NCBI GenBank assembly: GCA_951406725.2
Contig: OX597826.1
Span: 20,398,001-20,462,000 of the forward strand
Direction: 5' to 3'
DNA: 64,000 bases
Source: Octopus vulgaris
Lineage: Eukaryota
Shown: piece after piece, positions 3,895-49,230 of the stretch
How positions within the stretch are numbered: position 1 is the stretch's first letter
Layout: each line of letters begins with the position of its first letter
Notes under the pieces: model-generated
The model's input: the letters and a program-made list of their open reading frames with translations, nothing else
Told to the model about the DNA's origin: nothing
Database searches by the model: none
Position numbers and translations under genes: made by a program

Positions 3895-4095
3895 TATTGA
3901 CACAAGGCCAGCAATTTTAAGGGTTAAATCGATTACATTGACCCCCAGTGCTCGGTTGGTACTCATTTTATCGACCCCAAAAGAATGAAAGGCAAAATCG
4001 ACATCAGTGTATTTTGAACTCAGAACGTGGAGAGGAATGAAGTGCCGCTAAGCTTTTTGCCTGACGTGCTAACGGCTCTGCCACATCGCCACCTT
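3895..4095 (-). mobile_element. tRNA-derived SINE (family with GAGTTCAAAT B-box), minus copy
   Basis: Reverse complement of the 4124-4360 copy (GGCAGA..CGTTAGCAC..TTAGCGGCA..TTCTGAGTTCAAA..GTCGA.TTTGCCTTTCA). Confidence 0.75.
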
Positions 4096-4123
4096 TAGTT
4101 TGGTTAACATCAGTGTTGAAGTT

Positions 4124-4360
4124 AAGGCAGCGAGCTGGCAGAATCGTTTGCAGGTCGGACAAAATGCCTAGCGGCATTTCGTCCGTCGCTCTGTTCTGAG
4201 TTCAAATTCCGCCGAGGTCGACTTTGCCTTTCTTCCTTTTGGAGTTGATGAAATGAGTACCAGTTATATACTGGAGTCGATGTATACTGGACTCCAGTAT
4301 ATAACTGGTACACCCCCTCGTCCACCTCGAAATTGCTGGCCTTGTGTCAAAATTCGAAAT
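4124..4360 (+). mobile_element. tRNA-derived SINE (GAGTTCAAAT B-box family)
   Basis: AAGGCAGCGAGCTGGCAGAATCG head, B-box GAGTTCAAATTCC, then GCCGAGGTCGACTTTGCCTTTC; the same motifs recur several times in the window. Confidence 0.8.
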
Positions 4361-4384: not shown

Positions 4385-4553
4385 ATTTTAGCAAGGTGGA
4401 GGGTGTTATCGATACTTTATTGGTACTTATTTTATCGACCTTAAAAGGATGAAAGACAAAATTGAACTCGGCGACATTTGAACTCAGTGCCGGAGGAAAT
4501 GCGGTACAGCTTTTTGTCCGGCATAGTAACTATTCTTCCAGCTTGCCGCCTTT
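4385..4553 (-). mobile_element. SINE, same family, minus copy
   Basis: TTTTATCGACC..AAGGATGAAAG.CAAA..ATTTGAACTCAG..CCAGCT.GCCGCCTT is the reverse complement of the 4124 family. Confidence 0.7.
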
Positions 4554-12145: not shown

Positions 12146-12376
12146 CAGCGCTTCTCAACTATTTTGAAGTCAAAATACTTCTATGCCACTTCTAAGCCAC
12201 TGAAGATTCTTCAGTGGCTTAGAAGTATTTTGACTTCTATTTGTATGTAGTACCGTAGTATATATACATATATATTTATATATCTTATATATAATTATTA
12301 ACTTGTCTATAACGCTTGTGGTTGCTAACGTTATTATTATATGTGTATATATATATGTGTGTATGTATGTATGTAT

Positions 12377-21790: not shown

Positions 21791-22020
21791 TCCTTCCGAC
21801 GCCGATGGACGTGTCTGAAAAGGCTCCGTGAATTTGGTACCAATTTCATTGGAAATCTACTGATAAGTTTTGATATTTTTTAATATCTTTGTAGCCAAAC
21901 CGACCGGCTTCTTGCGGAGCTCGTCGGTTGGGCGAAATTTTGCCCCATTCGGGGTGAAATTACGTTTTGAAATTTTGAACATTTGACATTTTTCAACATT
22001 TTGAATATTACAAAAAAAAC

Positions 22021-23868
22021 ATGGCTATGAAGCGAACAGTTGGCTGTTCCTTCCTTCAAGATACATTCCCTCCGCAAACACACACAACTCGTCCAAAACA
22101 CCCACTTCACGCCTTAAAAGGCAACAAAGATTCTCCTTCCGAACCGGAGAGCACGCGCTCCGTTCGAAAGGAGAATGCAAGCCAGGACGTCGCGTTCGAC
22201 GTAATCCCCGATTTTCCCCCTCTGCCTTCACCCAATGCTTTGGTACGGAAGGAGGAGGAAGGAAAAACAAATACAAAAATCATTACAAACATTGACACGG
22301 AGAAAAATGAAAAAACTTCCAACAATTTTGCTTCTGCTGCGAAGCAAATTTCGGAGGAAGTTAAGATAACTCTAGAAGATGTGAAAAGAGCGAAGGAGTT
22401 GTTGAGGAAGGATGGCAATGGCATCTTCCTCAATACTCCACAAGAGGTGATTGAAAGCACAAACAAGAAAACAATCATATACAAAGTTTTCGACAGAAAA
22501 CTAAAAAGAATGACAAATGCCACACCCCAACAGTTAGAGATAGCTCTAAAGCCCATTTGGGCCCAAAAGAGCTACGTAACCAAGGGGAAGCGTTTTGGAA
22601 CCGTGGAGGTTCGCTTCCCAACAGAGGAGCTTGCAAGGGCGAACGCCATTTCGCCCTTGCAAACTGAGAATTTGTTACTAGTTCCGACCCACCTCGGGCG
22701 AAGAGTAACAAAAATAAAAATCGACCTCGCTCCCCCTGAGCTAGATATGTCATGGCTGGTGGCAGCTGTCCTCTATGATATAGAGGACACTACCACCATT
22801 CTAGATGTCAGGAGAGTGAGGGCGAAAAACTGGTTGGGGATGGGAGTGCTGCTTCTTGCGCAAATTCAGCAAGAGAATATAAGTAAAGTCCCTGATTTCG
22901 TAAGTTTGCCGGACGGCACCAGGCTAAACGTTGCTGTGGAGGGGCGAAAGCCAAAATGTTTCCTCTGCAGCAGCGAAAGCCACTTAAAGAGGGACTGCCC
23001 CATTCACAAAAAGAGGATGGAGGCTTTCAGCAAGAGGCAGCAGCAACAACAACAACAACAACAACAACACAAGCAACAACAACAGAAACAACAAAAACAG
23101 CACGAAACACCAAAAGCTGCCACACCACCAACACCATCACCAGAACCAAGACGAACAACACCACCTCCAACAACAACAACCACCACCAAACCAACACCGA
23201 CAACCACCACCAAACCAACACCGACACCAGTACCTCGAAGGTCGACAGCAGCGACATCAACAGCAACAGGAGCAGCGGCACCACCGATACCGGCGGAACC
23301 AAAAACCTTTCGTCCTGCTACTGAAGCAGACCCCTCAACCATTCCTTTGCCGGATGAAGAGTCGGATTGTGCGAGCTCTGATTCCAACAAAGGAGAATGG
23401 AGTATAGTGCCTCCAAAGAAGAAAAGGAGGAAAAAACAAAAAGATTTACAGGGGAAGCACGAACAAATAGTGCTTCCCAACATCAACAACAACAACAACA
23501 ACAACACACACTCACAACAACAAACAACAACAACACTTTCGACACCACTACTGCCACTGCCACACACACAAACACACACAGACACAATTACATCAATAAA
23601 CACAAAGAACCAAAAACTAGTGGAGTACTTAAAAAACAAAACTAGTACAAATATAACCGATTTCATCATACCAACACGAAACACACCACCAGCACACATT
23701 CTCACAATAAAAATAAATACAAAAACATATGATGAAATCAAACAAATATTCCCTAACGATGTGGGATCGCTAGGGAAAAGTTTCTCGAAGAAACTTTATA
23801 AAAACATTGTGGAAGCACCCGTGCAAAAGCACAAGGGAGCCACCCCCACCACCAACAACAGTAAGTAG
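22021..23868 (+). CDS. Tx1-type ORF1 (gag-like nucleic-acid-binding protein with CCHC zinc knuckle)
   Basis: 615-aa open ORF with CFLCSSESHLKRDC (CX2CX4HX4C), a Q/T/P-rich low-complexity region and a basic KKKRRKK patch; directly upstream of APE-RT. Confidence 0.88.
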   Translation: MAMKRTVGCSFLQDTFPPQTHTTRPKHPLHALKGNKDSPSEPESTRSVRKENASQDVAFDVIPDFPPLPSPNALVRKEEEGKTNTKIITNIDTEKNEKTSNNFASAAKQISEEVKITLEDVKRAKELLRKDGNGIFLNTPQEVIESTNKKTIIYKVFDRKLKRMTNATPQQLEIALKPIWAQKSYVTKGKRFGTVEVRFPTEELARANAISPLQTENLLLVPTHLGRRVTKIKIDLAPPELDMSWLVAAVLYDIEDTTTILDVRRVRAKNWLGMGVLLLAQIQQENISKVPDFVSLPDGTRLNVAVEGRKPKCFLCSSESHLKRDCPIHKKRMEAFSKRQQQQQQQQQQHKQQQQKQQKQHETPKAATPPTPSPEPRRTTPPPTTTTTTKPTPTTTTKPTPTPVPRRSTAATSTATGAAAPPIPAEPKTFRPATEADPSTIPLPDEESDCASSDSNKGEWSIVPPKKKRRKKQKDLQGKHEQIVLPNINNNNNNNTHSQQQTTTTLSTPLLPLPHTQTHTDTITSINTKNQKLVEYLKNKTSTNITDFIIPTRNTPPAHILTIKINTKTYDEIKQIFPNDVGSLGKSFSKKLYKNIVEAPVQKHKGATPTTNNSK

Positions 23869-23906
23869 AGCCTTTTTTCTCCTTTTTTTCCCCCTACTTT
23901 TGAGAC

Positions 23907-26900
23907 ATGGCAAATCTTAGAATCGGTTGCTTGAATGTGAGAGGCCTCGGGTCACCTTGGAAACAGGGTCACCTGTTAAACGACCTGAGGTTTCATGATG
24001 TGGATGTAGCAGCCATCAGTGAAACCAGGCTCTCCGACCCGCAGGAACTCGCAGCCCTTTTCGGCGGATACGAGATATTTCTATCTCCGTGTCGGCCGGG
24101 AGCGGGCGGTGGTGGTACTGCGGTGTTGTTTCGGAAGGGCCTGGACCTGAAAATAAGGACAGTCTTCTTGGATCCGGAAGGTAAGTTGGTGGTCCTCGAC
24201 GTCGACGGTAGTGACGGCGGTGCTTTCAGACTGCTGGCTGCCTACGCTCCGACAGGAGCAGGGCAGTCGGATTATTTCAAACGTCTGGAAGTTTTCCAGG
24301 GAACGTCACGCACTCTAGTGCTAGTTGGGGATTGGAACGCTGTCTTAGACGAACGTTTCGATCGGGTGGGCAGGCGAGCGTCTGATAGGAGAGGGGAGGG
24401 TGCAAGAGCCTCGCCAACCTACTCGGCCGCTTTCAGCTGTCTGACAGGTTTCGACTAGACAACCCGAATGTGCCAATGTGGACTTGGACAAACCGCATCG
24501 GGTCGTCTAGATCGTACTTAGATAGAGTGTTTTGTAGGCCAGCGGATAAGGACAGCGTAGGGTGTCCACAATTCCACCTAGTCGAATATACAGACCACAA
24601 ATTAGTGATCTGTACGGTCGACTTAGATAGGTTACATAGACAGGGACCCGGCTACTGGAAGCTGAACGCGTCGTTAACGGCGTGCAAAGCTTACAGAGAC
24701 CGGATTAGTTTACTAGTTAAGCGGGCGCTCACGGGGGCAATCATCAACAACAACTGGTGGTTTGCCCTCAAGAGAGCAATTAGAGTAGAGTCGATTAGGT
24801 ATAGTAAGACTCTAGCTATTGAACGTAGGAAGAGAGAGAGCGGGATTTAGTTAAGAAACTAGACGAGGCTCTTGACACTGGCATCGCGACCGACGTGTTG
24901 GCGGCAAGGTTGGCCCTCGACCAACACTTCGACGCCAAACACGAAGGCTGCGTTGTCAGAGCTAAGGCACGTTCGCTAAGCGGGGAGGGGACTAGAGCCG
25001 CTCGATGGGCCCGCGTGGCGGAGGCGAAGCGAGGCAACAGAGCAACCATTCGGTCTTTGGTGGACCAGAACGGGCGCGAGGTTACCGAACCGAAGCAGAT
25101 GTGTACGGTGCTTCAGCGGCACGTTGCTCAACTGTTTGGGACGAGCGGTGGAACGGACAACGGTGCAGACTTCGGTGTGTACCTGGACGGCCTACCGCAA
25201 CTCTCGGACAGCGAGGCAGAGTGCAGCGAAGGACCGATATCTGCCTGGGAAGTACAGGAAGCGATGAAGAGTTGCACGAGAGGTAGATCGCCGGGTTTGG
25301 ATGGTCTGCCCTACGAGCTTTACTTTTCAATGCCAGACTTGTTTGCGGACCTGTTGGCAAACGTCTACTGCAACTGGCAGCAAAACGGGAGAATTCCTGC
25401 TTTTGTCTGTCAAGGGGTGGTGGCTTTGCTAAAGAAGGACCCAAACAAGGGGGACGTTATAGGCAATTTCCGGCCCATCACTCTGCTCAATGCAGAGTTG
25501 AAGATTTTGGCCAAGGTGCTAGCCAAGAGATTGGCGCTTGTCGTGGACAAGCTGGTCGGCAAGACGCAGACATGCGCCGTGCCGACCAGGTCGATACACG
25601 ACAACCTCCATCTCATGCGCTACATCATAGAGAGGGTGGGTAACTACGCTGGCGCGGGTGGGGCTTTGATCAATTTGGATCAGAGTAAAGCCTTCGATAG
25701 GGTCGACCATCGGTACCTGGCAGCTGTCCTCAAGGCAGCCGGCTTCGGTCCAGTCTTCCGCGGGTGGATCGCTGCTTTATACAGCAACATCTGCTCGGTG
25801 ATACGGGTGAACGGTCACCTTTCGGAACCGTTCGACATCTCGCGTTCGGTCCGCCAAGGATGCCCTCTCTCCTCCCTCTTGTACATTTTGACTCTCGAGC
25901 CATTACTGCGCAAGTTGGAGGCTTTGAGGGGTATCCCGCGCGATCTAGGAGGCGGAAACAGCGTGTCTGCTTATGCCGACGACGTCACCGTGGTGGTGTC
26001 GAGCCACAGGCACATTGGCCTGATTGGCGAGACGCTAAACCAGTACGAAGCGGTGACAGGAGCAAAGATTAACGCGGAAAAGTCTGTGGGCTTGCAACTG
26101 GGCACCTGGAGAGGCAAGCCCATGCCGTCCAACAGCGTCGTAGGGCGCTGGACAGACAAATCCGTTAAACTGCTCGGGGTCTGGTTCGGTCCGGACCTCC
26201 AGGTGGATAAGAACTGGGAAGAGGTGACAAGCAGGGTGGCACGTCTCACCCAGAAATGGGCCGAGAGGAAGCTGTCCCTGAAAGGTCGAGCGGAGGTGGC
26301 GAATGCGTACATCGCATCCGTCATCTATTACCGCTTGACCGTCGTCCCTTGTCCCGACCGCTGGTTGGCCAAGCTGGTACGCCTGCTCTTCGACTTTTTG
26401 TGGAAGGGTCAGGTGCCACTGGTCAGGCGATCCATCTGCTGTCAACGACCGCTGAACGGAGGCCTTGGAATGCCGTGGTTGCTGTTGCGCAGACATGCGC
26501 TCAGGCTGCGGCATCTCAAGCGCTTCCTAGACGGTGAACAGGTGTGGTCGTCTTTTGTCAGACGCGATTTTCTGCAGCTCGTCTCTTTGACGGAGCTGCA
26601 GACCTGGATCAAACGTAGACCGAGAAAGGGCGCTTGGCACCTCGAGTGCCGTCAAGCTCTCTCCGCCCTCCGCCAGGCGGGCAATGCGATCGGTTACAGC
26701 TCCACTCTAGCGTTCTATAGAGGGTTAGTGGAGGAAAAATGCGACGACGTTCTCGGGGAAACTCTAGGCGTTGAAGATGACGAACTGAGCGGTCTGTTCG
26801 GGAGGACTTTCGGGCCGGGGCCGATGGATAATTTCCAGAGGTCTCTCGCTTGGCAGTGCTACCGAGGGGCTCTGCCTGTTCGAGATAAACTCTACCGGCA

Positions 26901-27339
26901 CGGAAGTGCCGTCAGCCGGGCCTGCCCGAGGTGTTGCCAGGACGACGAAACAGTCCTGCACGCACTCGTCCAGTGCCCGAGTATTGCTGAAATATGGGTT
27001 TATGTCGAACAGCTACTGTCACGTATAGGACGGATCCGACTATCGGCCGAGTCCATTGTGAAGATTGCCCCGCCGACCTCCTTTAACAAGGAGGGCGAGG
27101 CCGTTTTCTTGTGCCTAGTGGCTGTGGCGAAAGAGGTCGTGTGGTGGACTCGTTTGAAAGGGCTAAAGACAGACACTTTCCTCTTTGGTCAAGGCCTCAT
27201 CAACTTTTTCAAGTTTCACTTGAAAAGGAAGATGAGGTTAGAGAGGAAAGTGCTGTCCGATAGCAAGTTTTATGAAAGGTGGGTGAATTGTGCGAGACTG
27301 GCCTGTATAAATGGACCAGTTCTCAGGTTTCGCCTGTGA
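23907..27339 (+). pseudogene. Tx1-type ORF2 (APE endonuclease, reverse transcriptase, C-terminal zinc finger) with two frameshifts
   Basis: APE motifs GCLNVRGL, ISETR, YAP, GDWNA, YLDRVF, TDH; RT motifs FRPITLLN, LDQSKAFDRVDH, RQGCPLS, YADD; CPRC..ETVLHALVQC. Split across 23907-24458, 24470-24850 and 24895-27339 by shifts near ~24390 and the (AG)n run at ~24835. Confidence 0.92.
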
Positions 27340-30052: not shown

Positions 30053-32878
30053 TTAAGTTTGACTTTTGCTTTACATTTGTACAAGCTGGCTCCAAGTCTC
30101 ACACAGAGACCTCAAGAGACAACAGACTGGAAGTTCGTGTTGGTGTTATGCCTAGGGTGCCATATATTTGGTTTTGTATTTAGTGTTGTACTAGTGAATG
30201 CCTAAAAAACCATACGAAAATTATGTTTGCCTTAAAACTTGAGATTACATAGAAAGTATTTTGCGTAGGATATGAGCAGTTCCCATGAGCACTATCTTTT
30301 GAATTTCTGCCATTTTTGGGTTTCCTGGTATCTGAGTTAGGTAGCAACCAGCCCCTTGTGCTATCATTCCCAGGGCACCTATGACAACAGGTAATATTTT
30401 AGTCTTCAGGTTCCACATTTTGCTGATTTCTATTTTCAGATCTTTATATTTGCTCAGCTTTTGGTAGGTTTTGACAGATAAGTTTATATCGATTGGGACA
30501 ATCATATCAATGAGGAGGCATGATTTTTGTCTGAAGTCTTTCAATATGATGTCTGGCCTATTTGCATCTATCTTTCTGTCAGTTTGAATGGTGAAGTTCC
30601 CAGAGGAGTGAGATGTGGTCCTTTTCAAGCACTGGAGGTGGTTTGTGTTCCCACCAGTTTTTATCATGGGGCAAGTCCAAGCTTTTGCAAATTACCCAGT
30701 GAATATATTGTGCAGCTCTATCATGCCTGTTGAGATACTCTGTAGGCGCTAGAAGACTGCACTTGGAGATAATATGATCAATGGTTTCATTTTGTTGTTG
30801 ACATACACGGCATGTTGGGCTACTGCCGTTCTTTAATATGTTGGCCTGGTAGTTCCTTGTAGGTAGGCATTGATCTTGAGCTGCTAAGATAAACCCTTCT
30901 GTTTCAGATTTTAAGCCAAAAGCCATTAGCCATTGATGGGTAAGGGCATTGTCAACATCTGCATTATTCGCTCTCTTTGAGTATTTGCCATTGAGAGGTT
31001 TTTCTTGCCATTTATCAATCAGAGTATCTAAGGCCGCAGATTTAGCACGGGTTTTCATGCGCTTAGCTTTTTCTGTGCCTGTTTCTTGTATGTCTATCTC
31101 TAATTCCGAAATTTGTTGTTTTCGGAATTCATTTAGATATTCCTTTGCCTGTTTTGTTACTGAGTATGATGCTTTCTTGTTTTCATATTTTGAGACAAGT
31201 TTTAACATCCAGTCCTCAGAGTTTTTCAGGTAGGTGTCTAGACCAATTGTAGCAATCTTCATTGTTATTGCCAGTTATAAAAGTCCACGGCCACCCTCTT
31301 TTCTTGGCAAATAAAATCGTTCTATATCTGCCTTAGGGTGGTGCATTCTATGCATTGTCAACAGTTTTCGTATTTTTCTGTCAAGATTATTTCAGTAATT
31401 GAAACTGTAAATCACGACTGGTATGGCTAAAGCATTGATCGCTTCGATCCTGTTTCTCGCATTCAGCTCTGTCTTGAGTATTGCTCTTACTCTGCGATAA
31501 CATTCTCTCCTCATCCTTTCCTTCATCACTGAATGCCTGATTCCGTCCCCTTCAATTACCCCTAGGTACTTGTAGCTCTCCACTGGGTCTAACTCTTTTA
31601 TGAAATTCTGCTGGTCGAGGTAAACGTTAGAAGTTTCTATCATTTTTCCTTTGATAAAGGTAGCTTTTGCACATTTATCGAGGCCAAATTGCATTCTGAT
31701 GTCATCACTGAATTGTTTAACAATTGCTAGTAAGCCCTTGAGTTGTTGGTCATTTTTTGCAAAGAACTTTAAATCATCCATGTAAATGAGATGATTTATA
31801 TTTTTATCAAACATTTTATATCCGTACTCTGTGTCATTGAGCAATTTTGAGAGAGGTATTAAGGCTAAACAAAAGAGGAGTGGTGATAGTGAGTCGTCTT
31901 GGAAAATGCCACATGAAATTTTTACATTACCAGCATTTAAACATTCATAGTCACTGTTCAAAATTAGTGTGGTTCTCCATGATCTCATAAAAAACATCAT
32001 TGTAAAGTTGTGTTAACAGTTCATGGCTCTCTGGGAAGGCATTCAACCAGAAGTTAGGAATTTTATCCTTTCCTGGAGACTTCCATTTGCTTGACCTCCT
32101 GAGAGCAGATCTTACATCGTCTACCTTGACACTCTCCCACTTTTGCTCCTCTAAGGAGTACAAGTCCATAGCTATTCAATCAATCCAAGGGGCCTTTTCG
32201 TTGTGTGTTTTTTCTTCTGCCCAAATTTTATTCCAAAAACCCTACACTTCTTTTGATGGTACAGACTTTACAGTAACTGGTGTTTTCTCCATCTTCCTCT
32301 AAAAATTTTTGGGGCTATTTTTGAACATGTTGTTGTCTTTGAAGAATCTAACACGCTTTTCATACCTCGCTATGCGGGCAGTTTTAGCACATACCTTTTG
32401 CTTGATGGTTTCTATGGTGGCATCAATATCAAGTATAGTTTTCATATTATATTTTGTCTTCAATTTTTGGGTTTTTGTAGATTTGGTAGTCTTGTCAACC
32501 TTAAAGTTTTTCAAGCATTCAATATCAGACTTAAGTAGTTTAATTTGATGTTGGATACGCTCTTGCCAAGAAGGCTTTTTTGTGGGAATGTTGCCGTTTT
32601 CTAATCTTTTCACCACATAGAATCGTTGAGATTTTCGCGGATGCATAGTTTGGGTGGTTGAGATCTGTGATATCAACATCATTAGCTGAAATTATATCCT
32701 TAAGTGCAAGGCGGATTTTACCAATTATTTTCAGGTTTTCGTTTGAATTGCGAATTTTTGGGAGAGTATCGTGTTCATCCACACTGGTTTCTTTAATTTT
32801 CAGCCATTCAATCATGATTTGATTTTTTAGATCATGGGTCAATATTTGTGTGACTTTCTTCATCTATTTGATTTTCAT
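30053..32878 (-). mobile_element. R4/Dong-like LINE fragment B (RT, CCHC, REL endonuclease), frameshifted and internally deleted
   Basis: KWKSPGKDKI, GIFQDDSLSPLLFCL, HLIYMDDLK, CRVC..ETIDHIISKC, YLNRHD, ANRPDII..LIDM..P, K..KYKDL, VVIGALG; flanked by (AAT)n. Confidence 0.92.
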
Positions 32879-32879
32879 C

Positions 32880-33077
<198 letters not shown>

Positions 33078-33079
33078 CA

Positions 33080-34602
<1,523 letters not shown>

Positions 34603-34622
34603 ACCTATTATCTTGTTTTTAG

Positions 34623-34665
<43 letters not shown>

Positions 34666-36051
34666 GTTATTAATATTATTACGAGACGTTTGCGATAAAC
34701 GAGCGATAAAAGTTTCCTCACAGAAACTGTAGCCGATTAATCTCTTTTAACCGTGTCTCTATAATAGTGCGTCTAACAATGTCTATATAATAGTGTCTTC
34801 AACAGTGTGTATATTGCAAAATATTCAGCATGGCCTCTATGATAGTGTTTTTAAATGTGTGCATACAGTAGGTTATATATATACGACGGTAGACTACACA
34901 TGCTAAACTATATAATGTATTAAACACTTTGTCAAAATACAGACAATTTGATTAATAATAGTTTGGATGATAACCCCCCTCCACCCCATCCCCAATCAGT
35001 TTGTGTTTGAATAACGACTGAAAATTACTTGCCTTCGCTTTGTCGACTAGAAATAAGAGCCAGACAAACCTCAAATTACACCCTCCGTCCTTGAATAAAA
35101 GGAAGGCCACAGTGACCAATATTCTCTGAGATTTATAGAATAACATGATGGTCATGGTTGGAAGACCGTTGATTATAGCTTTGCACGATCAGAGCGAAGC
35201 TGGATCTAAACAACAGCAGTAACAACAACAACAATTAGTATTTGCCACTAATGCTAACTACTATATTATACATCAGATAATGTAGACTTAGATACACTAT
35301 GTCTTAGTAAAATACTGTATGATTGGAACGCCTTTGATAATAGGTCTGCTGGATCAGGGCTGACCTGGGGCTAAATACCTGAAATAACTTATCAATTGCA
35401 GAATCTCTCATGAATTCAAAGCCTCACTCACCCCCGCGGCTTGTCTTCCCTCCATGAAATATTTTTTATTGTTTAGCTGAATCAATTATCTCTGTTTAAA
35501 TGATACCAAACTCCATTCTCTATGCAGCATTCCACTCGTCTATATCCTTTCAATTCAATATTCATCCAGCGCTGAAGTCATCAGCTGCAGTTTGGCACCG
35601 TTTTCTTTCAATATTGAGTTCCCCAAAGTAATTTTCATATTCTTCAAGAAGAATTTTTAACTTTCAAACTGATCCAAATTTATCCTACTAAGGAGTACAG
35701 TCCTCATATCAGACCACTGTCATTCTTGACTCTATTCACAAGGAAGTCATTCTCCAGACATCAGTGTCTGTAAATGAAGAGGGTGTGGGGTTAGCCAATA
35801 TCTTGGTCTGAAGTTCGAAAGCCAAGGAAGAACCCGTGGATATTTGATAAAACAACACAACAATCACTGATTCTTTGAATGAGGAGAGAAACTTTGCCCC
35901 TTTATCTGGACCTTATAAACAGTCTTGTTCAGTTTTTCTCTCTGAAATCCCATCTGAATGTCTGAAAATACCTTCTAAAAACCCTTCTCCTGGCCAATAA
36001 TCCGTTTTTTGTTTCTTTGAAAACCCTTCTGTTTAATTTCACCCATATCTT

Positions 36052-36347: not shown

Positions 36348-36696
36348 AAGACAAGACATAAATAATGGTCATTACACATTTTTTTTTATTTATTGCAGTA
36401 AATTTTGACTTACAGCTGTTTCCAGTAATCATTATAGGTTCGGTATTGATAAGTTTGCTCCATTGTTCCATTGATCGGTCAAGAAAAATTGAATACTGAC
36501 CACTTCTTTAATGTTTTACTTTGTTATAATCAAAAATGACCCTCACGAAAGTAGTATTAACTTTTTAGGTCGTTCAATTTTTCTCGACCGATCACTGGAC
36601 CTATCAATAATGAACCTATAATGATTACTGGAAATAGCTTTAAGTCAAATTTACTGCAGAGAGAAAAATATCTAATGACCATTGTCTATACCTTGT

Positions 36697-36699
<3 letters not shown>
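36348..36699. repeat. Imperfect long inverted repeat (fold-back, PLE-type)
   Basis: Arms at ~36348-36495 and ~36573-36699 (for example TTTCCAGTAATCATTATAGGTTC versus GAACCTATAATGATTACTGGAAA). Carries GAAACAGCTGTA on the minus strand of the left arm. Confidence 0.8.
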
Positions 36700-39728: not shown

Positions 39729-40735
39729 AGTATCAACTGAGAAAGTTATTCTGTTAAGATGGTGGAAAAGGAAAATAGATATATTTAAAGGGATTGTTTG
39801 TATGACAGCCGTTGTGATTGTAAAATGAAAGTTGATAGTAATGGGTCAAAAGAATCGGAATAAATGGCATGAGACAGGAATGGTTGAATTCTGTAAGCCG
39901 AACATATCAACTTTTAACAAATATGAGTAATTCTTAACGTCAGAAACACACACAGACGATAGGCGATAATAGAAAATACAAATCACCGTAATGTCGAGAG
40001 TGTAGAACTAATCTGTAAGATTTATCGGTAGGTCATTTCTTGACTCTTCTTCTGCCGTAATTTTAATGTACGAGCTATTTAAGATATGCTCGACTTGCTT
40101 CCCATCGTATGCTTCATATTTACCAGAACTGTAAGTGGTTGGGAGAGACACCACATAATGATTGTTTGAGGTGGCGGTGAACTGGTTGGTGCAGACGATA
40201 CTGGCTTTAGGTGTAGGCGATGGAGCAGACGACACTCGATTCTTCCATCATCTGAAACTGTAATTAACTGAATATCGAAAAGTAAAATAAGGAGGAGGCA
40301 AACTTGCAAATAATACTAGTCGTTGTTATATTCCTCCTGGTGCATGTGTGTATTAAAGACACATATTTAAAGTCTAGCATGGATTCTTGTGATGAAAAAT
40401 GAGGATGCCAATAATATTGGAATGGTATTCAGTATAGTTTAATGTCAGAGCGAAATCACAATTTGCAAAGATCAAATACTACTACAACCTTTTGTTAGGT
40501 CAATCTTACATCAAATCAAGCAAGGAGCGTAAATAGAGGCCTTAAATGCTGTTATGTCACAACATCATTACGACTCCTTTGCATCAAATACTTAAAATGG
40601 CGCCTACTGCTGAACCTCTTCACAATTTTACTAAGGCGGCTTTAGTCACATTTCTTTCGCAACACATAAAAAGATATAATTCTTTAACAATTTCTCAAAG
40701 ATTCAAGAAATACATACTCATTCTCGATGAAGATA

Positions 40736-40800
<65 letters not shown>

Positions 40801-40828
40801 GAGAAAGAAGCAACAAGAATGGATTAGT

Positions 40829-40916
40829 TTTTAGTACAATTGTTTCATACAAAGACAGGCTTTATTAAAAGTTGCAAAAATTGCAGCAGATAAAGTCCCG
40901 TACTCATCAGCTAAAA
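40829..40916 (-). ncRNA. Minimal type I hammerhead ribozyme (mirror copy in left arm)
   Basis: Reverse complement of 41051-41140 with the core intact; it differs only in the stem II 5' strand (GTACGGGACTTTATC). Confidence 0.8.
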
Positions 40917-41050
40917 TACATATGAGTTCTCCAAACATCTTAGTGGGTGAGGCTATACTCATGAAGTATTGGAGATAATTTAATGAAATTATCTCCAATA
41001 CTTCATGAGTATAGCCTCACCCACTAAGATGTTTGGAGAACTCATATGTA

Positions 41051-41140
41051 TTTTAGCTGATGAGTACGGACGCTTTTATCTGCTGCAATTTTTGCAACTT
41101 TTAATAAAGCCTGTCTTTGTATGAAACAATTGTACTAAAA
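41051..41140 (+). ncRNA. Minimal type I hammerhead ribozyme
   Basis: Stem I TTTTAG/CTAAAA, core CTGATGA (41057-41063), extended stem II, GAAAC (41123-41127), palindromic stem III ACAATTGT, GUA cleavage triplet at 41132-41134. Confidence 0.85.
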
Positions 41141-41285
41141 ACTAATCCATTCTTGTTGCTTCTTTCTCGTTTATAATCACCCCACATTACTGTATGGTTA
41201 ACACCATATAGTTTTCTGGTGCATCTAAGTTAAGTACCATATTCAAGTAAATTCATTGGAATTGACTTGAATCTTAATTGCTTTT

Positions 41286-41336
<51 letters not shown>

Positions 41337-41478: not shown

Positions 41479-41724
41479 TACAGTATAAATATAAATTAAA
41501 TTAGAGATAAAACCACTATTAGGTAACTAAAACAGTGATAGACATAAACCAAAACATAAAAAGCATAAATTTAAAATTTAAATTATTAAAATTTTAATAA
41601 TTAAAATTTTAAATTTTATATTTTATATATATATTGTTTTATTTATTTTTGTTTTTTATGTTTTGGTTTATGTCAATCACTGTTTGAGTTGGCTTTATCT
41701 CTAATTTAATTTATATATACTATA
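41479..41724. repeat. AT-rich imperfect inverted repeat (fold-back)
   Basis: TATAAATTAAATTAGAGATAAA..AACAGTGATAGACATAAACCAAAACATAAAAA versus TTTTTATGTTTTGGTTTATGTCAATCACTGTTT..TTTATCTCTAATTTAATTTATA. Confidence 0.8.
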
Positions 41725-41771
41725 CTTTGATACTTTGATAGGTTTCGGCCATTTTATCTCAATATAATATA

Positions 41772-41828
<57 letters not shown>

Positions 41829-42471
41829 CATGTATATATGTACATATACATATGTAAGTATACATACATAGATACAAAATGTGTGTGCTGAAGAATGTTA
41901 AAGCAATATGGTTAAAAATAATCACCATATAATAGTCAGATAAATCAAAACTTAAATTGCAGCTCCATCCAGCGTAGGCAGGTCCAGTGTAGGAAGTCAG
42001 TTATAAGGATGACCTTCGTTGAGCTGGTTTGGAAGTAAAAAAAAAGGCAGATAAAAAAAGTAGACGTGAGGAGTGTATTTACACGGGACACAAATAAACA
42101 AAAGAAATGATGTTTTATCTTTAATGTCTATGCCATCATTCGTTTTGTTTATTTGTTTATACAACCTTCCTTGTAAGTATTACGCCTACTTTTGTTAATC
42201 TGCCAGTTTTTGTCACTGTATCGAGCAGATAATCGGATGCTATTACACACCGCTGGCCACAATGCACTTCTTCAAATGATGTCAATACACTGGCTTGGCG
42301 GGCAGGCTTTCAGCTTTACTCGCACATACACACACACACGCACACAATCACACACACACAATAACGAGTTGATTCATCTCCACATTACTTGCAGTTTCCC
42401 ATTATATATGTCTTCATGTATGTATGTATGTATGTATGTATGTATGTATGTATGTATGTATGTATGTATGT

Positions 42472-42537
<66 letters not shown>

Positions 42538-42581
42538 AATATGAGGATAAAATTCTTTTATATTTATATTTTTGCCCTCAA

Positions 42582-42651
<70 letters not shown>

Positions 42652-42674
42652 GCACACATACATACAAACATACA

Positions 42675-43538
42675 AACGCATGGAAGGAAAAGAAAATGTA
42701 CGATCAGTTTGCAAGAGATGTGAACTCCAAGACAGGTACAGAGGACCGGTGGCTATGGATGAGGAAGGGTGAACTGAAAATAGAGACAGAAGCAATTATA
42801 TGCGCAGCTCAGGAACAAGCGTTAAGGACTAATTATATGAAGTGCAGAATAGACAACACTACCGATGGCGACAAATGCAGAATGTGTGGTGAGAGGGGTG
42901 AAACGGTATGGCACATCGTTAGCGAATGCCCGAAATTGGCACGACGTGAATACAAAAGATGTCATGGCAATGTGGCAAGAATGATCCATTGGGAACTCTG
43001 TGGAAATCGCGGCCTACAAAGGGCAAAGACGTGGTATGAGCAAGCTCCAGAAGGAGTCAATGTAAATGAGAATTGCAAAATCCTGTCGGATGCAATGATC
43101 CAGTGCAATCTCCCGACCAGACATCGGAAACCGAACATTGTTGTGGTGAGTAAATAAACGAAAGAACTTGTATGATAAACGACATAGCATGCCTCGGTGA
43201 CAACAGGATCAATGTGGAAGAAGAAGAAAAAAATAAATGGCTATGATGATTTGAAGTGGGAAATAAGAAGGTTGTGGTCACTGAAGAGAGTAGACGTGAT
43301 ACCAATAGTAATTGGTGGACTTGGAATTATCAGCACTCAACTACCAACATGGCTGAAAGAGATTGGTGCAAGTGTGAAAGTGGAACACCTACAAAAATCA
43401 GCCATGCTTAGAACTGCAAGAATTCTTCGCAGGATTCTTGAAGCAGACATCACCAGTAAACAAGTGTCACCTTCGTCTGCTGGCTGTGGACAGCTGCCAC
43501 TTTCCATCCGACCCAGCAAAATAAGCTGTGAGTTTTCA
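42675..43538 (+). mobile_element. R4/Dong-like LINE fragment D
   Basis: [80 protein letters not shown]; 3'UTR then (AAT)n. Confidence 0.88.
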
Positions 43539-43545
43539 TATAATG

Positions 43546-44146
<601 letters not shown>

Positions 44147-45247: not shown

Positions 45248-46590
45248 CAGTGTCCCCAAAAATGCATACACACCTTAACAGCTGGTAACTTAAAATTCCC
45301 TTTTTTAAAGGTTAACCCATTAGAAATAATGAAGGGAATCAGATTAAGTTTTTAACAAGGCAAATTTATTCTGAAGCGCAACTGTTAATTTGAAAACGCA
45401 ACAGAAGCAAAAGAAGACTGTTTCGAAGGGACCTTCAAACAAATCCACCTCCGTCATTGCTCGACTTAAACATAAGTTTGAAGCAGATGGAACTGTTCAG
45501 GATGTTTACAAGAAACATTCCGGAAGACCGCAGACATCGATAAGCCTCATAAAGCAGCAAAGTGTATCAGAAGCGTATTGTCAGCGTTCCAGAAAATCTG
45601 AGCAGCCAGCGAGTCGTAAGGTAGGATTTTCAAAGTCAAGCATTCAATGCATTTTGAAGCGTTGTCATAGGGCAAGTTTCACTCTGAGAATAGTCCATAC
45701 TCTCAATGAAGATGGTCCAGACTGAAGAGTGGAGTCTGGCGAGTGGCACTTGGCAAAATGTGTTGAATATAAAGATTGATTAAAGCCACAAGGCTCCTCT
45801 TAAATTGAATGGCTCAATTAACAGCCACAATCGCACCTACTAGGGACATGAGAACTCGTATATTACGGAGAAACATCAAGTTAATTTGGAGTAAAGATTG
45901 TTTGCCAACATAACATGGCAGTCCTGGTTTAGGACGAATGTTGCTGTAATTTATCTCCAGGAGACTAAACATTCGTCCTAAACCAGAACTGCCATGTTAT
46001 GTTGGCAAACAATCTTTACTCCAAAGTACTGTTGCTGAATATCTCTCATTGTGAGATTTAAAAATAGTAATTTATCATGTTAATTTATCAGGCTTTTCAT
46101 CAGAATGATTCTTTTTGCTGGTAAAGTAACTAAACCCATTTACTTGAACTTGTTGTAACAATCTCCATGATCAACATTGAAGAGGACTTTAACGATGAGG
46201 TGTTTTATTTCTAGCAAGATGGAGGACTCCTATACTAAACCAAATAGGTGAATTGGACGAAAAGATTTTGAAGATTAGCCGCACAGCAATTTTCGTGGGG
46301 ATACGTAAAAGATAAAGTTTACAGTACAAAACCGGGAACAATCGATGACTTGAGGACACACATTGGACTAGAATGAGCACAAATACCGAACTAAAGGATT
46401 TTTGACGCCTGTGATTCCATTATTTCGCGTTATCAACAGTGGCTGGATTAGAAGGATCATCAATTTGAAAAGAGGCGTTCATAAAAAAATTAAATTCTAT
46501 CTGTAGATTCTATTGAATTTTGAAAATGGAATGTATTTCAATAATACCTTTATAATCATTCAGTATGTATATACATCTTCGGGACAGCAT
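45248..46590 (+). mobile_element. Decayed Tc1/mariner-superfamily transposon
   Basis: HTH relic (KFEADGTVQD..SGRP, SKSSIQCILK), QDG and WGY.KDKVY remnants; degenerate TIRs CAGTGTCCCCAAAAATGCATACA / TGTATATACATCTTCGGGACAG. Confidence 0.75.
45885..46086. mobile_element. ~200-bp hairpin insertion inside the mariner relic
   Basis: 58-bp arms at 45885-45942 and 45968-46025 (1 mismatch); 13-bp flanking repeat ATCAAGTTAATTT (45875-45887) / ATCATGTTAATTT (46074-46086). Confidence 0.75.
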
Positions 46591-48349: not shown

Positions 48350-49230
48350 AAGGGGCACAGCTAACGTTGTGATTGTGTTCGCTCTCCGAGACAAGGGAGA
48401 CCCGAGCAAGGGAGTCCGAACTTTGGCGAGATGGATGAGTGTTGGAGTTGCCACCATGAAGCTGGATCTCAATGAGAACCTTCGCTACCACTCGTACAAG
48501 AGGTTCAAGTGATAAATTCTGACAGCCAAGGAGAAGCGCTTGACGAAAGCAAAGAAGCTCCTGAACAAGCTGAGGCCTCCTATCGAAACAGGGATGATCT
48601 GGTTCTTCTCAGATGAAAAGAACTTCTGCCAGGACCAGTTGCACAACACCCACAACAACAGGTCCCGTGTATCATGAAAACCAAGTTCCTCCAACCTGTG
48701 ATTGTCTTTGAGTTGACGTCAAAGGGTGACGTCATGCCAGCCCACATCTTCGAACAGAGACAGACTTAATTCAGACAGTTATGTAAAGCTGCTGCAGACG
48801 GTGGCCAGACTCTCACTTGAGAGGGTTGCTACTGGAAGGCCATTTGTGTGGCAGCAAGACTCGGCTCATTGCTATACCTCTGGAAAGAGACAGATGTGGT
48901 TGTCAGAGAATTTCTACCATTTCACAAATTTCAATTTCTGGCTTCTTAATTCTCCCGATTGTAATCCAATGGATTATCATGTGTTGGGCACAGTTGGGAA
49001 AGACATCAACCGCTCTGCCTGCCTCACCAAGGCCGAGCTAGTGGCCAAAATGAAAGAAGTGTTTGAAGATCTTCCTTGGGGCACAGTGAGAAACGCATGC
49101 GCCAGGTTCCGGAGCCGTCTTGAGGTCGTGGTGGAAGCTGAGGGCGGTCACTTTGAGTAAACTGTTGACACCTAGTCATAATGTGGTTGATATTTTTTGA
49201 TTTTTTAAAAATGCTTTTATTTTTTGGATA
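48350..49230 (+). mobile_element. maT/DD37D-type mariner-like transposase relic
   Basis: FFSDEKNF, QQDSAHCYTS, NSPDCNPMDY (37 residues between the second and third catalytic D), ACARFRSRLE.VVEAEGGHFE*. Confidence 0.82.

Follow-up and report, generated by a model that had tools for sequence, protein, structure and literature searches.

The window, a 64-kb stretch of Octopus vulgaris DNA (64,000 nucleotides), is rich in microsatellites, and between two of its (TA)n runs lies an insertion of 490 bases (40800-41289) that consists, from left to right, of an inverted arm, a direct arm and a one-sided tail (Table 1). The arms, 182 and 184 nt long, surround the loop AATG and are identical across 84 and 95 nt, with a single spot of mismatch at 41070-41074, where five letters stand against three within stem II of a hammerhead motif. 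The near-perfect inverted repeat of about 183 bp with a 4-nt loop that was described in the original prediction is therefore real, but the boundaries proposed for it (40799..41170) are wrong, because the 120 nt to the right of the palindrome belong to the same high-copy repeat. Likewise, the palindrome abuts (TA)n on the left as had been proposed, whereas on the right the tail intervenes before the next TA run. This tail, which had been overlooked, is the most diagnostic part of the insertion, and it is predicted to fold strongly (z -4.7 relative to 300 shuffled sequences). Since the target itself is (TA)n, neither flank permits a target-site duplication to be recognised.

Table 1. Features of the insertion and its flanks (window coordinates).
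Feature	Position	Strand
Left (TA)n target run	40742..40799	
Inverted arm; element end copied with 5' truncation and no tail; outer end at a recurrent family endpoint	40800..40981	-
Left-arm type I hammerhead motif; stem II 57 nt, CUGAUGA at 40910-40904, GUA at 40837-40835	40829..40916	-
Centre; A/T quasi-palindrome, 8/10 centred pairs; loop (40982-40985) templated by a longer element	40979..40988	
Direct arm	40986..41169	+
Right-arm type I hammerhead motif; cut predicted after 41134; stem III palindrome ACAATTGT at 41126-41133	41051..41140	+
Long stem II (59 nt), with an inner hairpin at 41084-41096	41064..41122	+
One-sided structured tail, 120 nt; hairpins at 41189-41212 and about 41242-41272; same repeat as the arm	41170..41289	+
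Right (TA)n target run	41290..41331	

Other palindromes occur in the window, with no sequence in common with this family. Adjoining the insertion is a second, very A/T-rich imperfect palindrome (41479-41724; 75%), with GTTTCGGCC at 41742-41750; the palindrome is followed by a hammerhead half-core (GGCCGAAAC on the minus strand), which (TA)n truncates at 41779, and the two together are possibly an older stub from another Penelope-like element (PLE) family. An imperfect palindrome of 352 nt at 36348-36699 (70%) has (TA)n on its right and, unlike the insertion, yielded no hammerhead core. The palindrome at 45882-46028 has near-perfect arms of about 60 nt around an asymmetric centre; that at 3957-4262 is diverged (74%), overlaps a near-perfect hairpin (4257-4311) and is accompanied by a third partial copy (4421-4552); and at 12188-12226 a perfect hairpin with 18-bp arms turns at CTGAAGA, a hammerhead core word, its symmetry extending outward past a short interruption. 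The plus strand also carries a near-intact non-LTR retrotransposon (21979-27339) with a 629-aa first ORF, an endonuclease (PF03372), a reverse transcriptase (RT; PF00078) and a zf-RVT domain, which we take to be of the L1/Tx1 type. Broken non-LTR RT fragments interrupted by microsatellites lie at 30245-34746 (minus strand) and 42177-43778 (plus strand), with RVT_1 above the cut-off and zf-RVT below it. Two plus-strand frames (45375-45725 and 48717-49160) look to us like pieces of a Tc1/mariner transposase and gave no Pfam match at E 0.01.

Each arm of the insertion contains the elements of a complete type I hammerhead, as the original prediction had stated: the core CUGANGA, GAAA and UH with stems I-III, stem I being open. 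A descriptor of this motif matched twice across both strands of the 64 kb, once in each arm, and in none of 1000 shuffles of 40200-41300. On the plus strand, stem I pairs 41051-41056 with 41135-41140, CUGAUGA occupies 41057-41063, and stem II, whose first pair is G-U in place of the canonical G-C, is followed by GAAAC (41123-41127), the loop AATT and GUA (41132-41134). Both motifs point outward from the centre of the palindrome. Rfam returned no hammerhead at the gathering score and none among 34 matches down to E 10, presumably as its hammerhead models expect a short stem II. Those sub-threshold matches were mostly to miRNA hairpin models, and a miRNA reading was rejected because they lie below threshold and only mirror the hairpin.

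The core proved to be conserved across copies. None of the 31 variant sites of the family falls within the 39 positions of the core, stem I, stem III and the base of stem II (P 0.011 over arm plus tail; borderline in the arm alone, with P 0.052 and 12 sites), a pattern that selection on the motif within the family would be expected to produce. Support for the detailed stem pairings is mixed, since the 12 variants at paired positions include four that keep the pair, two that could compensate each other and six that break it. A similar inner hairpin of stem II is retained in the loose ends of diverged copies and sister subfamilies; one loose-end consensus (four contigs, sequencing run X16) carries a double change at the pair 41086/41094, and the inner loop base 41090 differs among copies. 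The stem II of 57-59 nt, which had been called unusual, is real and a trait of the whole family, but it has a precedent in the 53-nt stem II of a plant element, PLE-X1_sMoe (PMC8557442 File S2).

Folding of five constructs predicts a weak monomer, with an active core fraction of 2e-3 to 3e-10, and the palindromic stem III is predicted to form a duplex of -8.4 kcal/mol, a combination that fits action as a dimer. The hammerhead is probably the family's own 3'-end ribozyme, which would need a dimer or the help of a protein.

Parts of the stretch are contained in 20 of the 24 public sequencing runs listed, from 10 studies. Contigs from six of the 24 (X1, X2, X9, X10, X11 and X16) were aligned onto two sub-stretches of it. 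In four runs, 939, 2424, 750 and 478 contigs respectively aligned to 40950-41290, marking a high-copy family, summed contig depth not being equivalent to copy number. Contig cover runs unbroken from the arm over 41170-41290 in all four runs, and again in four of four in the second alignment, so that the apparent right flank belongs to the element. Among the loose ends listed (24 of 247 in the first alignment and 24 of 119 in the second), at least 32 contigs of X11, at least eight of X16 and at least one of X1 pass into (TA)n behind 41175; records 1-3 of X1 terminate at 41169, records 22 and 24 of X16 pass from the tail into TA, and a sister subfamily terminates a few bases beyond 41289. These ends suggest two recurrent 3' endpoints against (TA)n, namely the outer end of the arm and the end of the tail.

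At the centre of the palindrome, two contigs each in X10, X16 and X11 align from 40979-40981 and continue into one common upstream sequence. Since longer copies thus run on upstream through the centre, the centre is a truncation point and the loop is templated. The upstream piece (fewer than 20 codons, read by eye) is open in a frame that stops at TGA 41006-41008 and might, at a guess, be the end of a parent ORF. At one 5-nt spot both arms deviate from the letters most frequent in the family: the left arm's extra G occurs in other copies, and G41072 of the right arm is absent from the contigs aligned there in three of the four runs. Two templates, later repair or sequencing error could lie behind this spot. 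Sister subfamilies also occur among the six aligned runs over 41110-41290; their stem II interiors differ, their last tail hairpin is shorter, and they have loose ends at 41112-41119, 41214, 41245 and 41255. The family is accordingly old and diverse as well as young.

We consider 40800-41289 to be one insertion of this high-copy repeat, most likely a dead-on-arrival stub of an endonuclease-bearing (EN+) PLE. It has the traits of such elements: a copy inverted head to head and truncated at its 5' end, a tail on one side that lies between two recurrent 3' endpoints, a type I hammerhead with a palindromic stem III in the terminal repeat, and an AT-rich, (TA)n target. The Penelope-like reading of the original prediction, which had relied on the inverted truncated end and on a palindromic stem III suited to dimers, thus gains support from both the architecture and the family data. 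Neither the telomerase-like RT nor the GIY-YIG ORF of full EN+ PLE copies lies in the stub, pattern scans of metagenomes gave 0 and 0, and protein search found no parent, so membership of the PLEs rests on architecture. A 49-codon frame across the left hammerhead was rejected as a coding candidate, its three matches among 1.84 billion proteins all being repeat proteins matched over 4-8 stretches, and none of three short frames left of the insertion (0/3) matched Pfam.

The stub probably arose in three steps. The element's protein would cut both strands within (TA)n, and each cut end would prime reverse transcription at its own internal RNA site, at about 41169 and about 41289, the interval between the two start sites becoming the tail; this has been observed in vitro for the PLE of the anole and is proposed here by analogy. 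The two first-strand cDNAs would then meet head to head at the quasi-palindrome of the template (40979-40988), and repair would fill in to produce the inverted repeat. On this account, the hammerhead is present twice only because the element's end was copied twice. The central 10-mer is among five of 302 10-mers with 8/10 centred pairs; its energy (-3.0 kcal/mol) ranks only 140th of the 302, and this middling rank lends the annealing step weak support. Priming by fold-back of a single strand at the centre, the reading offered in the Discussion of PMC3846280, was set aside because the 3-bp hairpin would be unstable (+0.9 kcal/mol) and the stop of the left arm at a family endpoint would go unexplained; we retain it as a minor variant.

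It is tempting to speculate that the parent represents an undescribed PLE lineage, with a long-stem-II hammerhead, a 120-nt structured tail and priming sites far wider apart than in any studied PLE. Its mirror stubs would arise from two first-strand cDNAs, made by a protein dimer and pairing at the template quasi-palindrome, which possibly come from two RNAs, given that the arms differ in one 5-nt spot. This fuller proposal is tentative and, taken as a whole, rather doubtful; if true, the stubs, in their thousands, would preserve a legible trace of how PLE insertion is completed.

Less probable again is a parent in the form of a non-coding, tandem non-LTR retrozyme (about 300-400 nt as a circular RNA) working with a borrowed PLE enzyme, the present copy being a truncated inverted insertion. 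A type I hammerhead with a 6-bp stem I and a 2-bp palindromic stem III is what metazoan retrozymes carry (PMC7229834), and retrozymes have been argued to derive from PLE ends (bioRxiv 10.64898/2026.07.22.740005); the very high copy number, the lack of any ORF found and the family sequence in two presumed-RNA runs (46 and 52 contigs) would also suit such a parent. Yet the locus holds no tandem copy, no head-to-tail units of 170-400 nt being found there, and the 24 of 119 loose ends listed include neither a joint at the tail end nor any loose end behind 41289, the copies entering TA instead. Stem II, moreover, is not of the canonical form with a 4-bp stem and a small loop, and its length (57-59 nt) and variable base 41090 do not agree with canonical loop 1-loop 2 contacts. 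Insertion would proceed by the same mechanism whether the parent was a PLE or a retrozyme.

An artefact of assembly or of library fold-back is very improbable as the source of the palindrome. Its arms are nearly identical, none of the contigs listed spans the stretch, and the absence of G41072 from the contigs of three runs implies that some letters may be errors; but the point where the left arm meets (TA)n, without the tail, is exactly one of the family's endpoints, the two flanks show no relationship, the loop is both templated and asymmetric, and the layout matches a published one.

The original prediction went further in proposing that RNA read through the hairpin could either self-cleave or fold back into long double-stranded RNA (dsRNA). 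Read-through on either strand would transcribe the antisense arm before the sense arm, the sense arm is 97-100% paired at six of six plus-strand transcript lengths in folding, and forcing the hammerhead core costs 116.8 (plus strand) and 120.4 (minus strand) kcal/mol, so that fold-back is predicted to win outright and such a choice is not supported. We predict that any read-through RNA would be a 180-bp hairpin in which neither ribozyme folds, that is, passive dsRNA and not a switch. The A-to-I edits that had been suggested for checking did not appear as an excess of A>G in the contigs, where A>G accounts for 3/20 and 5/30 variant places in the two runs presumed to be RNA and for 3/21 and 4/23 in the other two; as contigs drop rare variants, editing is neither demonstrated nor excluded. 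One change, A41144G, has a greater depth share in the presumed-RNA runs (15% and 43%, against 0.2% and 0.6%). Because it is also present in 20 and 10 contigs of the other two runs, and because changes other than A>G, such as A41186T, follow the same pattern, subfamilies are indicated.

A functional RNA device, whose read-through transcript would either cleave itself or supply ADAR or Dicer with long dsRNA, is thus scarcely credible. The near-perfect hairpin (minimum free energy -340 kcal/mol) would be a good dsRNA substrate in principle, both hammerhead cores are intact, and the A41144G shares favour the presumed-RNA runs; but a young copy would be expected to have intact cores, the surroundings of the insertion yielded no recognisable host exon, the sense arm would pair while being made, and the A>G fractions are alike in both kinds of run. 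Equally remote is amplification, in palindromic form, of a DNA element of the fold-back or MITE-like type. Although a long inverted repeat does adjoin TA, the element extends 120 nt beyond it on one side only, so that inverted repeats do not form both element ends, and over 40950-40973 X10 has no contig and X9 a depth of 10-20 where the arm has tens of thousands, so that the centre is not high-copy there (in X11 and X16 its cover is ambiguous, 24 and 5 contigs fitting two places).

The layout of the insertion is already in print, and the stub is most likely an ordinary, well-explained Penelope-like remnant, of little importance as a single locus. Because the family combines a templated centre with two sharply defined 3' endpoints separated by 120 nt, it could nonetheless help with the open question of how PLEs make inverted ends and tails. 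If transcribed, hairpins of this sort would further raise the dsRNA burden of a heavily editing animal.

Neither this family, nor a PLE tail of 120 nt, nor a stem II of 57-59 nt in an animal PLE turned up in our literature search, although Repbase, subscription papers or supplements could contain such material. Published EN+ PLE insertions comprise an inverted 5'-truncated copy and a one-sided tail of 30-40 bp, often in a (TA)n target (PMC8557442; PMC3846280). The present insertion is like them in its head-to-head inverted copy and junction palindrome, in having a tail on just one side and (TA)n as its target, in the type I hammerhead located close to the 3' end and in its high copy number; it differs in the length of its tail, 120 nt, and in that no ORF remnant was seen. 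Two candidate parents from octopus were rejected on the accessible part of the PMC8557442 supplement: Hydra-1_Obim, as the octopus Hydra hammerhead differs, and the octopus Naiads, as the two Naiad 3' ends compared there differ too. Two motifs of our family had no match in the same material, where line breaks may mask one.

Hammerheads are known from PLE ends, including pairs on opposite strands 100-700 bp apart (PMC4209133), the giant squid has 235 hammerhead loci (PMC6962438), and dimer cleavage by minimal hammerheads has been reviewed (PMC6765202; PMC3088659). The motifs described here share with minimal and variant PLE hammerheads CUGAUGA, GAAA, GUA, a short palindromic stem III and a weak monomer, in our case a predicted one (PMC4209133; PMC6765202). 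They differ in having an inner hairpin within a stem II of 57-59 nt, compared with 7-8 bp in schistosome motifs (PMC4209133), in having G-U for the usual G10.1-C11.1 pair, and in scoring below every Rfam hammerhead model. Metazoan non-LTR retrozymes are similar in being abundant, A/T-rich and non-coding, as the insertion is, with a type I hammerhead (PMC7229834; bioRxiv 10.64898/2026.07.22.740005), and are set apart by the non-canonical stem II and the absence of a tandem unit at the locus.

A further comparison is with Poseidon of Anolis (PAc), whose protein both cleaves and extends the two strands, beginning at two sites within the RNA, the interval between them becoming the tail; its hammerhead depends on protein, and insertion in vitro can do without it (PMC11167929). 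Like PAc, our family has two recurrent 3' endpoints downstream of the hammerhead, an AT-rich target, and an A/C-rich stretch and stem-loop after the first endpoint; the start sites of PAc are adjacent and within its ORF (PMC11167929), whereas those proposed here from sequence would lie 120 nt apart.
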